Positions 53,629 through 58,658 of a stretch of 64,000 bases of DNA are shown here, piece by piece. The translations under genes were made by a program, and so were the position numbers. Under the pieces are notes generated by a model. It was not told the origin of the DNA. It was given only the letters and a program-made list of their open reading frames with translations, and searched no databases. The stretch is taken from the NCBI GenBank assembly GCA_035363115.1, contig DAOSEM010000001.1, forward strand, positions 335,356 through 399,355. Direction: 5' to 3'. Each line of letters opens with the position of its first letter. Position 1 is the first letter of the stretch. The stretch is from Syntrophales bacterium (GTDB lineage: Bacteria; Desulfobacterota; Syntrophia; Syntrophales; PHBD01).

Positions 53629-54894
53629 ATGGATGATGCTTTCCTGCCCGCCACCATACGCAGGCTCCTCGAGAAAGGCGTCCGCATCCCTCATCCCTGG
53701 ACCGTCGAGGTGGGGGATGAGGTTTCCCTCGACCGCGTCTCCGGCCGGGGCGTTGTCCTCCATGGCGGTGTCCGGCTTCGCGGTGAACGGACGCTCCTCT
53801 GTGACGGGGTAAAACTGGGGGCGGAAGGCCCGGCCGTCGTGGAAAACTGCCTCGCGGGGCCCGACGTCGAACTGAAAGGCGGCTTCTTCCGGGGGTCGGT
53901 TTTCCTCCGCGGCGTTCAGATCGGTTCCGCCTCCCATGTCCGGGAAGACTGCCTCCTCGAGGAAGAATCCTCCGGAGCTCATGCCGTCGGACTCAAGCAG
54001 ACCATCCTTTTCCCCTTCGTGACCCTCGGCAGCCTGATCAACTTCTGCGACTGCCTCATGGGGGGCGGCACGAGCCGCCGAAACCACAGCGAGGTGGGAA
54101 GCTCCTTCATCCATTTCAATTATACCCCCCGGCAGGACAAGGCGACGGCGTCTCTTCTCGGCGATGTTCCGCGCGGCGTCATGCTGGATCAGCCCCCCAT
54201 CTTTCTCGGCGGGCAGGGAGGAATCGTCGGGCCCGTCCGGATGGGGTTCGGAACGGTCCTTCCCGCCGGTTCGATCTGCCGCCGGGACGTTCCGGAGGGA
54301 GGCGTGACAACCGGCGAAGACGGCAGGGACCGGATTGAAGGACCCTTCCTCTCGAAACGGGGGGGGGATCTTGCCAGAAAAGTGCGGAACAACCTCCTGT
54401 ACATAGCCAATCTTTTCGCCCTGCGGGCCTGGTATGCACAGGTCCGGAGTCCCTTTTTCCGCGCCGCTTCGCACGAAGCGGAGCTGCTGCCGGGTGCGCT
54501 GGACGTCCTCGAAGGGGCGATTGCGGAGCGGCTTCTGAGGCTTCGGAATGTCGCCGCAAAACTGCCGCCGGAGGGCGAAGCGACCGGACCGGCGGGGGTT
54601 GTATCCGAACGCCGCCGGCAATTCAGGGAGCGGTGGCCGGAAGCCGAGGAGGTCCTTCAGGACGGAGCCGGGGATTGTGGAGATCCGATGCTCCGGGACC
54701 GGTTCCTGGCCGTCCGGGACCGGCTGGCGGGACGTCCGGCTGGGGCGGCGGACTATCTTCCCTTCATCCAGGCGCTCAAAAAGCCGGAGCGCCTCCTGGG
54801 GACGGCCTGGCTGGAGAGCATCGTGAACGACCGGATGGAACGGGTTCTGGGTGTGCTGACGGCCTTCCGTTCCGGGCCTGTGGAGGCGGCATGA
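53629..54894 (+). CDS. hypothetical protein with hexapeptide-repeat-like (left-handed beta-helix) N-terminal half and helical C-terminal half
   Basis: Periodic segments VVLHGGVRLRGERTLLCDGVKLGAEGPAVVENCLAGPDVELKG... and HSEVGSSFIHFNYTPRQDKATASLLGDVPRGVMLDQPPIFLGGQGGIVGPVRMGFGTVLPAGS resemble acyl/nucleotidyl-transferase LbH folds. Its stop overlaps the next ATG (ATGA). Confidence 0.6.
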   Translation: MDDAFLPATIRRLLEKGVRIPHPWTVEVGDEVSLDRVSGRGVVLHGGVRLRGERTLLCDGVKLGAEGPAVVENCLAGPDVELKGGFFRGSVFLRGVQIGSASHVREDCLLEEESSGAHAVGLKQTILFPFVTLGSLINFCDCLMGGGTSRRNHSEVGSSFIHFNYTPRQDKATASLLGDVPRGVMLDQPPIFLGGQGGIVGPVRMGFGTVLPAGSICRRDVPEGGVTTGEDGRDRIEGPFLSKRGGDLARKVRNNLLYIANLFALRAWYAQVRSPFFRAASHEAELLPGALDVLEGAIAERLLRLRNVAAKLPPEGEATGPAGVVSERRRQFRERWPEAEEVLQDGAGDCGDPMLRDRFLAVRDRLAGRPAGAADYLPFIQALKKPERLLGTAWLESIVNDRMERVLGVLTAFRSGPVEAA

Positions 54895-57800
54895 CAGGGA
54901 AAACCATGATGAAATTCGTCCGGGACATGAATCGATTCGGCATTGGCATCGTCAGGGCTCTCTCGGCCTGGCGGATTTTCGTTGGAAAGCGCCCCGAGGA
55001 TGTCCGCGTTCCCGCCGTGATTCTTTTCCCGCTGCAGCCGGGGCTGCTTGCCTGTGGTCTTGCCGGCATCGTCACCATCAAGCGGGCCGGTCCAGCCGGG
55101 GAGACATCCGATGTGGAGAGACTCGCGGCGGCCTTCGGACGGGTTCGGGCCAGGGGCATGAAGGCACTGCGCATGGGAGTCCTTCTGCCGCAGGATTACC
55201 TGGAGCCTGAATCCCTGCGGGAGCTGGAGGCCGGGACATCGCGGCTCAAGGAAGACGCTTCCTATCAGGATTTCTTCTTCCGGGACGGCCAGGTTGCCGA
55301 CATGAAAATGCTCTGCGAGGATCTGGCGGGCTTTGTCGGTGATGAGGAGAGGGAACTGGAGGAGGCCGCGACATCCTTCAGCACCGCGGAGCTGGAGATC
55401 CTGGGGAGCCGGCAGATCCTGCTGAAGGACATCCTGTGGGCGCTGGAGCAGGACGTGCTGGCTAACGTGGAACGGATCACCGCCCTGGCCGGGGCCGCCT
55501 CGCCCCGGGACGTCGATCCGGTCGCCTTCGGCAAGTACAGGAGAATGAACTTCCTCCTCAACTGCATTGACCGCCTGGAAGTGCGGGGCCGGGACTCCGC
55601 GGGCCTGACGCTGGCCATGACCTTCCCCGATGGCGACCATCTTCGCCGCCTGGAGGACCGCCTGCGGGAGGAAAGGCTGTACGAAGCCTATTCCCGGAGA
55701 ACGAGCGGGGGAGATCTCCTCAACGGGAGCATTCGCCTCTCGGAGCGGGGGGCCGGCAACGGTTCAGGACGCCGGGATGTAACGGCCAATTTCGTCTACA
55801 AGACGTCCTCCATCATCGGCGAACTCGGGAGGAACGTCCGGGAACTCCGCAAGGCCGTTTCCGAAGACCCGGTCCTCCGGTTCTTCGTCCGGCAGGAGAC
55901 GCTCCTGGAGACGTCTTTGACCCATACCCGCTGGGCGTCCGTCGGTTCGATCACGGAAGAAAACTGTCATCCCGTGAACAGCTTCACCCTGGCGGACCGG
56001 ACGGGACGCAAGGCGTACCCCCGGTATGGCGTTGGAAACTGGGCCATTCACGTCGTCCTCAACGGCGACATCGACAATTATCCGGAGCTGCGGAAGGGAC
56101 TGGAGACCGATCAGGAGCTCATTGCACCGGCACTCACCACCGACACGAAGATCATCCCTCTCCAGATCGAACACTACCTGCTGGAGGGGTACGACCTGGC
56201 GGAGTCGTTCCGGCTGGCCGTGAGCAGTTTCGAGGGGTCCCATGCCATTGCGATGACGAGCGACCTGGAGCCGGGCAAGGCGTTTCTGGCCCTCCGGGGA
56301 AGCGGCCAGACGATTTACATTGGCCTGGCTCCGGACCAGTATGTCTTCTCCTCCGAGCTGTACGGCATCGTGGAGCGGACGCCCTGGTTCATCAAGATGG
56401 ACGGGGAGGCGCCGGCCGATCCCGATATCCCCGAATCGACGGGGCAGGTCTTCGTCCTGCACCAGGAATCGGAGGGGGGGCCGGCCGGTATCCGGGCCTT
56501 CGCCTACGACGGATCGCCCATTGCCCTGGGTGCATCCACTGTCAAACGGGCCGAGATGACCACCCGGGACATCGACCGGGGAAGCAACCCCCACTTCTTT
56601 CTCAAGGAAATCGGCGAATCCGCCGTGTCCATCCGAAAGACCCTCCGGGGAAAATACCGCATTCACCGGGCAAACGGGGAGGATCCCCAGGTCGTCTTCA
56701 ACATCGGCGGGGACATCGTGCCGCTCTCCGTGCAGTCGGACCTTCGGAACGGCGCCATCCGGCGCATCCTGGTCATCGGGCACGGGACGGCAGCCGTGGC
56801 GGGCTCCGCCGTGGCCGACGCCATGGAGCGGTATCTCCGGGGGTCCCGCATCCGCGTGGAAGGGAAAGTGGCCTCGGAGCTCAGCGGATTTTTCCTGGAA
56901 GATGACCTGGCGGACACGCTCGTGGTGCCCATCACCCAGTCGGGCACCACGACGGATACGAACCGGGCCGTGGCCATGGCCCATGAGCGGGGGGCCCGGG
57001 TGGTCTCCATCGTCAACCGGCGGCAGTCCGACATCACCTCCAAGTCCGACGGCGTTTTCTACACCAGCGACGGGCGGGACATCGAGATGTCCGTGGCGTC
57101 CACGAAGGCCTTCTATTCCCAGATCGTGGCCGGCCACGTTTTGGCCCTTTTTATCGCCCAGCTCATGGGGTCCCTGTCCGATGAAGACATCGCCGGGGAG
57201 CTCTCCAGCCTCGAACAGGCCCCGGAGATGATGAAGCGGGTGCTGGCCCGGAAGGATCTCATCCGGCATTCCGCGGAGCTCCTGGCGAAGCAGAAGCGCT
57301 ACTGGGCCATCGTGGGCAGCGGCCCCAACAAGGCCGCGGCGGACGAGATCCGCATCAAGCTGAGCGAGCTGTGCTATCGAACGATTTCCTCGGACGTAAC
57401 GGAAAACAAGAAGCACATCGATCTCTCGGCGGAGCCCCTGATCATCGTCTGCGCCGCCGGAAACCCGGAAGCGGTCGTGGGCGACCTGGTGAAAGACGTG
57501 GCCATCTTCAAGGCCCACAAGGCCGCCGTGGTTGTCTTTGCCGACGAGGGGGAGGAGCGGTTCGATTCCCTGGCCGACTCGGTCGTCCCCATCCCCGGGG
57601 CCCGCATGCCCCTTCCGGTGATCCTCAACACCCTGGCTGGCCACCTGTGGGGCTATTACGCCGCCTGCAGCATCCACAAGGACTCCCTGTTCCTCAGGGA
57701 CTTCCGGAACCGGATCCACCAGGCCATGGTGGACCCGGCCGGCCGGCCCGTATCGTTCTACGAATGGATGGCCGACCGGACCTTCCGCCGCATGATCCGG

Positions 57801-58658
57801 GACTTCTCCCACACCTTCAACAAGCTCCGGGACGAAGGGTCCTTTTCCGCCACCAGCGTCAAGGCCGTTTCGGATCTCGTTCTCCTCCTGAAGTACGCCA
57901 TGGGCAAACTCCCCCTGGAGGATTTCTGGAATGACTTCCGCGGCGACAACGGGCCGGTCTCGCCGCTGGACCTCCTGGACTTCACCCTTGCCCAGGCGGC
58001 GGAGGATCTCTCCCGCCCGGTGGACGCCATCCGCCACCAGGCGAAGACCGTCACCGTCGGGACGAGCCGCAAGGCCGCACCGCTCCGGGGGATCTTCTTC
58101 GACCTCCTCAGGGAGCTTGGCTTCACCGTGAAGGACCTGTCCTCCAGGGACATCATCGTCCTCAACCGCATTCAGCCGGGGGTGGAGGCGATCAAGGGGT
58201 ATACCCTCTACGGGATCGACCGCCTGGACGACGACGGAAGGCCCGCCGACCAGACCACGATCACGATCCGTGCAAGGGGCGGGGTCTCCCTCGGCATGGC
58301 CTCCCGTGCGGAAGGAACGAAAACGCTGATGGGAACGAAGCGGATGATTGTCCGCATCGGCCGCCTGTACGTGGGCAGGGGAAAGTCCGACGGGGCACCC
58401 ATTGTAATTATCCCCCTGCTGAAGGGAGGAATGGTCCGGAGCCTGCTCCTGATCCACGTCCGCTACAATGAAGCCCTGGCTCTCCGCGAAAAGGTGGAAG
58501 TCATCGGCTACGCCTACAACGACATCCGGAACCTGGTAAACGAGTACAACCTGGCGTGGGATGATCGTTACCTCGAGTCCTTCACCCTCGAATCGCTCCT
58601 GAGCGAGCCTCCCGAGGTGATTGCAGGAAAAATCAAACAAATGCTGGAGCCGGTATGA
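54891..58658 (+). CDS. giant GlmS-like protein: class-II (Ntn) glutamine amidotransferase + two SIS domains with leader, insertion and C-terminal extension (1255 aa)
   Basis: CGLAGIV (Cys at codon 55), [35 protein letters not shown] (GATase-II catalytic set). SIS motifs [10 protein letters not shown] and [10 protein letters not shown]. An internal QAKTVTVG resembles the GlmS C-terminal LAKSVTVE and is followed by about 198 more residues. Confidence 0.8.

Follow-up and report, generated by a model that had tools for sequence, protein, structure and literature searches.

A 64,000-nucleotide stretch of the Syntrophales bacterium contig DAOSEM010000001.1 (assembly GCA_035363115.1, forward-strand positions 335,356 to 399,355), referred to here as the window, carries a gene at 54891..58658 on its forward strand (1255 codons plus stop) that probably encodes a long form of glutamine:fructose-6-phosphate amidotransferase (GlmS, EC 2.6.1.16), an uncharacterised variant of a known enzyme. 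A first-pass annotation made from the sequence alone had described the product as a giant 1255-residue protein of the GlmS-type N-terminal nucleophile (Ntn) amidotransferase/SIS class, about twice the normal size, and we confirmed both the open reading frame (ORF) and the motif positions behind that description. The protein joins an Ntn glutaminase domain and a double-SIS isomerase domain, as in E. coli GlmS (1jxa, 2j6h, 1xff, 1moq), and adds a leader ahead of the catalytic cysteine, three inserts and a C-terminal domain beyond the residue motif that ends GlmS.

The GlmS core and the reality of the gene

The earlier claim that the hallmark motifs of GlmS are all present in order was verified position by position. 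Cys55 (TGT, 55053..55055, forward strand), the Ntn nucleophile and counterpart of Cys1 in E. coli GlmS, opens the motif CGLAGIV (residues 55-61), after which come RGRDSAG (232-238), HTRWASVG (345-352), CHPV (359-362), LNGDIDNY (390-397), TDTKII (417-422), a first and a second SIS-domain motif of 10 letters each (681-690 and 837-846) and QAKTVTVG (1050-1057). Alignment of the family profile with E. coli GlmS by hhalign (probability 99.7) mapped the key residues to identical or conservative ones. With the numbering of equivalents taken from the E. coli GlmS sequence, Cys1, R26, R73, W74, N98, G99 and D123 of the glutaminase half correspond to Cys55, R232, R347, W348, N391, G392 and D418 of the long form, and in the isomerase half S347, Q348, S349 and T352 correspond to T682, Q683, S684 and T687, K485 and E488 to K823 and E826, and H504 to H842. 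The phosphate loop reads T682-Q-S-G-T-T687 here versus S-Q-S-G-E-T in GlmS. All of the mapped glutaminase and isomerase residues, from the equivalent of Cys1 to that of H504, are invariant in 110 sequences of the Syntrophales family, and they are likewise invariant in 33 long forms that lack the leader, apart from the S347 equivalent, which is nearly so. Cys55 itself is invariant in the family and stands as residue 2, directly after the Met, in leaderless relatives.

Pfam profile searches, which the first-pass annotation had proposed, returned SIS at 2.9e-16 and weak matches to GATase_6/7. The top sequence matches in the PDB were human GFAT1 and E. coli GlmS (E 1e-15 to 1e-19), GFAT being the best-scoring of these by phmmer (E 3e-19). 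The SIS-only enzymes NagB-II/GlmD, FrlB and AgaS share the double-SIS sugar-phosphate fold (NCBIfam NagB-II, 1.9e-13) but lack the glutaminase domain and the tail lysine, both of which the long form possesses.

Structure prediction, likewise proposed at the first pass, was carried out with AlphaFold2 (AF2) from family alignments in two overlapping parts, residues 1-600 and 541-1255, and returned GlmS-like glutaminase and isomerase folds together with two inserts, 2 and 3, that the first-pass annotation had not listed. The N-terminal model (predicted local distance difference test, pLDDT, 83.7; predicted template modelling score, pTM, 0.80) had as its best Foldseek match the GlmS glutaminase domain 1xff (E 5.6e-12, template modelling score, TM, 0.74 on the target), with GlmS glutaminase domains ranked first, ahead of PurF, GltS, EgtC and AsnB. 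Together with the residue mapping this places the insert-bearing class-II (Ntn) glutaminase domain at residues 55 to ~550 (55053..56540, forward strand). The C-terminal model (pLDDT 84.0, pTM 0.67) matched GlmS isomerase domains with an E value of 1e-17, target-based TM scores of 0.84-0.87 and a root-mean-square deviation of ~3 Å; the isomerase (synthase) domain, with its two SIS subdomains, was assigned by Foldseek and hhalign to residues 562-930 (56574..57680, forward strand). Measured on the targets, the core of the long form therefore shares the E. coli GlmS fold at TM 0.74-0.87, with the catalytic residues kept.

The C-terminal tail of GlmS is also present, at an internal position (residues 1043-1057; 58017..58061, forward strand), with Lys1052 equivalent to E. 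coli Lys603 by match of the tail motif. The best local match of the E. coli C-tail in the whole protein lies at residues 1044-1056 (13 residues aligned with VDQPRNLAKSVTV, score 33). In the Syntrophales alignment H-Q-A-K-T-V-T-V is invariant and forms the most conserved stretch of the C-terminal third, and in the leaderless alignment the H, Q, A, K and final T-V-G are invariant, with the intervening T-V conserved at 90% or more. The loop just past the tail lysine (residues 1051-1063) has low pLDDT.

The start codon, ATG 54891, forms part of an ATGA shared with the stop codon of the upstream gene and is preceded by a Shine-Dalgarno-like GGAGG, read from the sequence, at 54881..54885 (forward strand), 5 nt ahead of the ATG. 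The sole longer in-frame start, GTG 54633, was rejected: homologues lend it no support, and a gene starting there would share 260 nt with the upstream gene. In agreement with the first-pass description of Cys as codon 55 preceded by Ala, codon 54 reads GCC, and with no start codon directly before Cys any start leaves residues ahead of Cys55; the gene offers no alternative start that would yield an N-terminal Cys. A database search with the 1255-residue protein gave 5329 matches, the best 120 of which are all 1224-1313 residues long and 57-95% identical over their full length, the named organisms among these 120 being Syntrophales or Deltaproteobacteria metagenome-assembled genomes (MAGs). A frameshift, misassembly, gene fusion or miscalled start could in principle give the appearance of a giant protein, and high-GC DNA does yield long spurious ORFs, such as the 966-residue antisense ORF at 55764..58664 (reverse strand) that spans most of the long-form gene and is itself a high-GC artefact and no gene. 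Hundreds of independent assemblies nevertheless contain collinear full-length homologues, in some cases on contigs of 2.8-8 Mb, every module is conserved within a confidently predicted fold, and the leader is conserved at the protein level, so that an artefact, which the first-pass annotation had kept in view, has a negligible probability, and conservation across assemblies rules out the fusion reading as well.

Leader, inserts and C-terminal domain

The long form differs from E. coli GlmS (1255 versus 609 residues) in having a 145-residue helical bundle after strand beta-1, further glutaminase inserts, a 112-residue insert ahead of the tail, a tail that is internal and followed by a 198-residue domain and, in Syntrophales, a 54-residue leader. 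Pfam searches at E values up to 10 gave no match for any of the five extra segments (the leader, inserts 1-3 and the C-terminal domain).

The leader, a putative propeptide delimited by conservation and the AF2 model, comprises residues 1-54 (54891..55052, forward strand) and is basic, with an isoelectric point (pI) of 11.7. It has a conserved core, W..I..G..P..V..PA(L/V)I(L/F)FP(L), that ends 8-9 residues ahead of the Cys; across the 110 sequences Pro47 is invariant and Phe46 and Gly32 are at least 90% conserved, while change is slower in the Cys-proximal part of the leader than in its N-terminal half. AF2 predicts a helix at residues 3-25 and strands at 28-31 and 42-45 (pLDDT 66-84), with pLDDT below 50 at the junction (50-55). 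The residue preceding the Cys varies across the family (A, C, F, H, Y, N or S). Of the 73 Syntrophales loci that include the 5′ end of the gene, 72 encode a leader. The sole leaderless locus, L007, has a genuine Met-Cys start, ATG-TGC preceded by GGAGG and by in-frame stops. Directly upstream of that start, where leader-coding sequence would be, lies a heptamer tandem repeat (ATGACTT / ACGACTT; L007 5158..5205). In other clades 37 of 49 full-length representatives start MCG without a leader, so the leader is best described as a clade-specific addition, judged from these sequences, to a wider long-form family that is mostly Met-Cys. No other protein of the window has an FP...CG leader or an MCG start.

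The Ntn chemistry of class-II amidotransferases needs a free alpha-amine, and the first-pass annotation had pointed out that a leader ahead of the catalytic Cys would need to be removed. The invariance of Cys55 and of every glutaminase residue, together with the direct Met-Cys start of one Syntrophales lineage and of most long forms of other phyla, leads us to infer that the leader is a propeptide that comes off; the variable residue before the Cys and the low model confidence at the junction point the same way. Known propeptides measure 11 residues in B. subtilis PurF and 36-42 residues in the glutamate synthase large subunit GltB; the first-pass remark that the leader is far longer was made against the PurF propeptide, and beside those of GltB it is not. 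We know of no GlmS or GFAT reported with a propeptide. The PurF and GltB precursors (MEROPS C44) resemble the long form in having an extension directly before the catalytic Cys and in having orthologues in other species that start Met-Cys; they differ in that the long-form leader is longer (~40-54 residues), has a conserved FP-containing core and is a propeptide by prediction. Ntn hydrolase precursors, for example that of glutamine phosphoribosylpyrophosphate amidotransferase, are described as cleaving in cis (PMC3207474). A lipoprotein signal peptide, suggested by a lipobox-like LLA followed by Cys, was considered and rejected: the family keeps no lipobox, its members mostly have C, F, N, H or Y ahead of the Cys, the preceding stretch holds a conserved Pro and polar residues where a lipobox would have its h-region, and leaderless members exist.

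Insert 1 (residues 65-209; 55083..55517, forward strand), delimited from the AF2 model and its pI, is an acidic helical bundle located between strand beta-1 and the helix preceding RGRDSAG. The first-pass description of a large acidic helical insert after the Cys was borne out by a pI of 4.5 and a very confident AF2 bundle at 74-229, with the helices of residues 74-199 at pLDDT 89-97, and the reported spacing of about 177 residues between Cys and RGRDSAG was measured as 177 (Cys55 to Arg232) versus 25 in E. coli GlmS. Judged by this distance, insert 1 is present in all long forms, the Cys-to-RGxDSAG spacing being ~143-181 residues in the 36 of 49 full-length representatives in which both motifs were located. 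The opposite charges of the basic leader and acidic insert 1 suggest that the two may dock. Insert 2 (residues ~246-335; 55626..55895, forward strand), recognised from AF2 secondary structure and comparison with the E. coli sequence, adds ~50-90 residues of helices and strands, and widens the gap between RGRDSAG and HTRWA to ~113 residues versus ~45 in E. coli. GFAT1 and GFAT2 (6r4e and others) offer a parallel, as GlmS orthologues enlarged by an insertion in the glutaminase domain and allosterically regulated by UDP-N-acetylglucosamine (UDP-GlcNAc), but they have ~680-700 residues and no C-terminal domain. The GFAT insert is short and at a different position, and GFAT starts with Met-Cys and ends with a KSVTVE tail.

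Insert 3 (residues 931-1042, ~110 residues; 57681..58016, forward strand) is helical, separates the tail motif from the last SIS helix and was taken from the AF2 helices at 368-510 in the numbering of the C-terminal model. The first-pass observation that the motif ending GlmS is internal here was upheld, with 198 residues beyond QAKTVTVG and 203 beyond Lys1052. These 198 residues (1058-1255; 58062..58655, forward strand) form an alpha/beta domain of AF2 pLDDT ~84-95 with many invariant polar residues. A PDB sequence-profile search with this C-terminal domain alone gave noise (best E 0.07). A Walker-A reading of its GRGKSDG was dismissed, as neither its Lys nor its Ser is conserved across the aligned family.

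Distribution and gene neighbourhood

A scan of one genome per species with the C-terminal domain as query found relatives in 267 species genomes, the closest 99% identical, and the best 80 of the 267 are labelled Syntrophales, Syntrophaceae, Smithella, Syntrophus or unclassified Deltaproteobacteria/Pseudomonadota MAGs. A profile of the same domain, run against 1.84 billion cluster representatives, matched 305 proteins, most of which are either fragments or GlmS-like proteins of 1135-1260 residues with the C-terminal domain at the very end. The long proteins share a layout, with SQSG near residue 580-680 and the tail ~200 residues from the end, and the extra modules therefore travel as a package. 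Named members among the full-length representatives belong to Planctomycetota and Acidimicrobiaceae. A profile built from the 33 leaderless long forms, in which M1-C2-G3, the catalytic residues and the HQAKTVTVG tail are conserved, matches at least 5,900 clusters (90% identity) with labels that include Candidatus Xenobia/Vulcanimicrobiota, Armatimonadetes, Planctomycetota and Acidimicrobiales among others; the phylogenetic mapping proposed at the first pass thus carries the long form well beyond Syntrophales. In the source databases the proteins appear as "SIS domain-containing protein", "hypothetical protein" or GlmS. We found no dedicated curated model for the long form and nothing relevant in the literature on long-form, propeptide-bearing or extended GlmS or on glmS in Syntrophus, and these searches gave no support to the caveat of the first-pass annotation that the architecture might already be characterised.

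Two metagenomic proteins of 1540-1545 residues (P0240 and P0252) show yet another architecture; they carry the same C-terminal domain at 31% identity over 170 residues, together with a degenerate SIS-like region (SNSGGT), no Pfam match, no Met-Cys start and no GlmS motif that we could find. One long form (P0298) bears the archaeal label "Candidatus Nitrosotenuis sp." and a second one the label "Thermoanaerobacterales bacterium"; such MAG labels may be binning errors.

Gene order was compared in 88 sequences (the fetched loci and the window), which reach ~10 kb to either side of the long-form gene. In Syntrophales the order is moaC - small membrane protein - Fis-like HTH_8 - [LbH] - long-form gene - [LbH - glmM - (NagB-like)] - pyrG, where LbH denotes a left-handed beta-helix protein. 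An LbH gene was found in 67 of the 88 sequences, a glmM-like gene in 32 and pyrG in 78. The one Syntrophales glmM-like gene that was scanned scored 580.7 bits against a glmM equivalog cut-off of 447.55 and is a bona fide glmM, so that the long form shares with GlmS a genomic linkage to glmM and a glmU-like gene. An E. coli GlmS query against the same 88 sequences matched only the long-form gene. One leaderless long form, from Acidimicrobiaceae TMED130, shares 36% identity with the window protein over 1130 residues and lies in the order rplM-rpsI-glmM-[long form]-nnr-alr-...-tsaE-tsaB-rimI-tsaD. This is the slot that glmS takes in actinobacteria, as in the gene orders of M. tuberculosis and Streptomyces.

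In the window the LbH gene lies immediately upstream at 53629..54894 (forward strand) and encodes a 421-residue protein resembling the acetyltransferase half of GlmU (NCBIfam glmU, 5.8e-11; residues 8-238 aligned to model positions 239-445). It lacks the uridyltransferase domain and ends in a helical extension of ~185 residues without a Pfam match. Its PDB matches are to GlmU (best 1.3e-5), besides two at E 0.28 to an unrelated transcription factor. By hhalign the GlmU catalytic residues R333, K351 and N386 are kept; His363 aligns to Ser, and acetyltransferase activity of the LbH protein is therefore uncertain. Downstream, pyrG (CTP synthase; 58655..60268, forward strand; Pfam CTP_synth_N, 1.2e-125) begins within the stop of the long-form gene (ATGA, 58655..58658), and the LbH gene, the long-form gene and pyrG appear, from these overlaps, to be translationally coupled. 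Upstream, moaC (52085..52702; Pfam MoaC), an ORF for a 185-residue membrane protein without a Pfam match (52686..53243) and an ORF for a 101-residue Fis-like protein, HTH_8 in the syntenic loci (53272..53577), all on the forward strand, form a block (52085..53577) conserved upstream of the long-form gene across Syntrophales.

Eleven loci have a NagB-like gene between glmM and pyrG (e.g. L035 13512..14636 and L002 14510..15475). Its product scored 137.8 bits against a nagB cut-off of 236.9, with the match split in two, which suggests an insertion. In L002, which is on the same contig as L047, glmM (13138..14486) and pyrG (15480..17092) are each split into two ORFs, of 367 and 81 and of 91 and 452 residues, respectively, probably through frameshift errors of the MAG assembly and not as pseudogenes. 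An Rfam scan of the 64-kb window detected no glmS ribozyme, riboswitch or other element besides one tRNA (40337..40421, forward strand). A promoter scan found no sigma-70-like sites, and terminator-like sites occurred near the shuffle expectation.

Function and alternative explanations

From the conserved residues and the gene neighbourhood, the long form most likely supplies glucosamine-6-phosphate (GlcN-6-P) for UDP-GlcNAc, and hence for peptidoglycan and lipopolysaccharide, in this member of the Syntrophaceae. We favour such ordinary GlcN-6-P synthesis because of the glmM and GlmU-like neighbours and the TMED130 gene order. The first-pass suggestion of a repurposed enzyme of unknown specificity is not borne out, as the GlmS-defining residues are invariant and a bona fide glmM and a GlmU-like gene are neighbours. 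In the proposed mechanism, translation from ATG 54891, coupled to that of the upstream GlmU-acetyltransferase-like gene, would give a 1255-residue precursor, whose basic 54-residue leader would then be lost. Autocatalytic cleavage of the X-Cys55 bond, on the pattern of other Ntn amidotransferase precursors, is the likeliest route and would free the alpha-amino group of Cys55. Glutamine would then be hydrolysed in the glutaminase domain by Cys55, Arg232, Arg347, Trp348, Asn391, Gly392 and Asp418, and the ammonia would pass to the double-SIS domain, where fructose-6-phosphate (Fru-6-P) is predicted to be held by Thr682, Gln683, Ser684 and Thr687, with ring opening by His842, Schiff base formation on Lys1052 and isomerisation by Glu826 and Lys823. 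GlmM and the GlmU-like enzyme would take the product onward. For the two large helical inserts and the 198-residue C-terminal domain we infer a role as a scaffold that repositions the internal tail loop and offers a surface for oligomerisation or regulation, because the modules are always co-inherited, occur almost only in the long-form family and, in the C-terminal domain, include many invariant polar residues.

Several observations weigh against this assignment. Identity to E. coli GlmS is ~25%, and the scores for the curated GlmS hidden Markov models lie far under their cut-offs, with TIGR01135 at 217.2 bits against a cut-off of 418.05 and NF001484 at 239.4 against 381; the assignment rests on motifs and context for this reason. 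The NCBIfam glmS models align to residues 338-929 only. Two phosphate- or sugar-site positions are substituted (S303 to Ala and E351 to Thr, E. coli numbering). The tail lies inside the chain instead of at its C-terminus, and its equivalence, taken alone, is modestly significant, since 15 of 1000 shuffles also reach a score of 33. Neighbourhoods in three other distant lineages were uninformative, the view of a canonical ~600-residue glmS in these genomes extends ~10 kb to each side of the gene, and the leader, with its invariant Pro47, is more conserved than a disposable spacer needs to be.

The divergence from GlmS, the sub-threshold scores, the S303 and E351 substitutions and the extra modules without Pfam matches would all fit a specialised paralogue along the lines of the first-pass reading, a glutamine-dependent ketose-phosphate aminotransferase of other specificity or with a regulatory role that works beside a canonical GlmS encoded beyond the ~10 kb surveyed around each locus. 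Such a paralogue might perhaps feed a special amino-sugar pathway together with the LbH protein, which lacks the uridyltransferase half and has Ser aligned with the catalytic His, and with the NagB-like protein of the 11 loci. We regard it as rather unlikely: no variation is seen at the residues that bind Fru-6-P, open its ring, form the Schiff base or carry out isomerisation, the adjacent mutase is a true GlmM, the Acidimicrobiaceae gene occupies the actinobacterial glmS slot, and occurrence in 267 species genomes, with the best 80 all of Syntrophales type, fits a core gene. The conservation of the leader, with its nearly invariant FP and its retained W, G and P positions, and its moderately confident AF2 structure (pLDDT 66-84) raise the further question of whether it stays in place, leaving the glutaminase silent or differently activated and the protein acting as an ammonia-dependent GlcN-6-P synthase/deaminase or a sugar-phosphate-sensing regulator. 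This is quite improbable, given that Cys55 and the glutamine-binding and oxyanion residues are invariant, which would not be expected of a dead domain, that Met-Cys forms without a leader are found within this clade and prevail in the wider family, and that Ntn chemistry in general requires the free alpha-amine.

GlmS catalyses the committed step to UDP-GlcNAc, is an antibiotic target and serves as the classic model of ammonia channelling. To our knowledge, all structural and mechanistic work has dealt with enzymes of ~600-700 residues that start with Met-Cys and end with the lysine tail. The long form appears to keep the ordinary GlmS chemistry and breaks both of these end rules, and its architecture, with an internal tail, a leader before the Cys and ~550 extra residues that have no Pfam match, is unusual and unstudied. 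The family is equally unstudied and is large, extending over Syntrophales, Acidimicrobiales, Planctomycetota, Armatimonadota and Eremiobacterota-type lineages. Recognising it would improve annotation and provide a clear structural target. We tentatively raise a bolder idea, which we think unlikely, that the long form regulates itself and has taken the place of canonical GlmS in several phyla. Its three co-inherited modules would act as an allosteric or assembly device, for instance one that senses UDP-GlcNAc or GlcN-6-P as feedback signals or one to which the GlmU-like partner docks, and the Syntrophales leader would provide zymogen control; if true, the protein itself would exert the kind of control known from the glmS ribozyme and from GlmY/GlmZ. 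Should the long form be the sole GlmS of these organisms, its annotation as a "SIS domain-containing protein" leaves an apparent gap in cell-wall precursor synthesis, and the modules and leader would be a new place to seek the regulation of amino-sugar supply.

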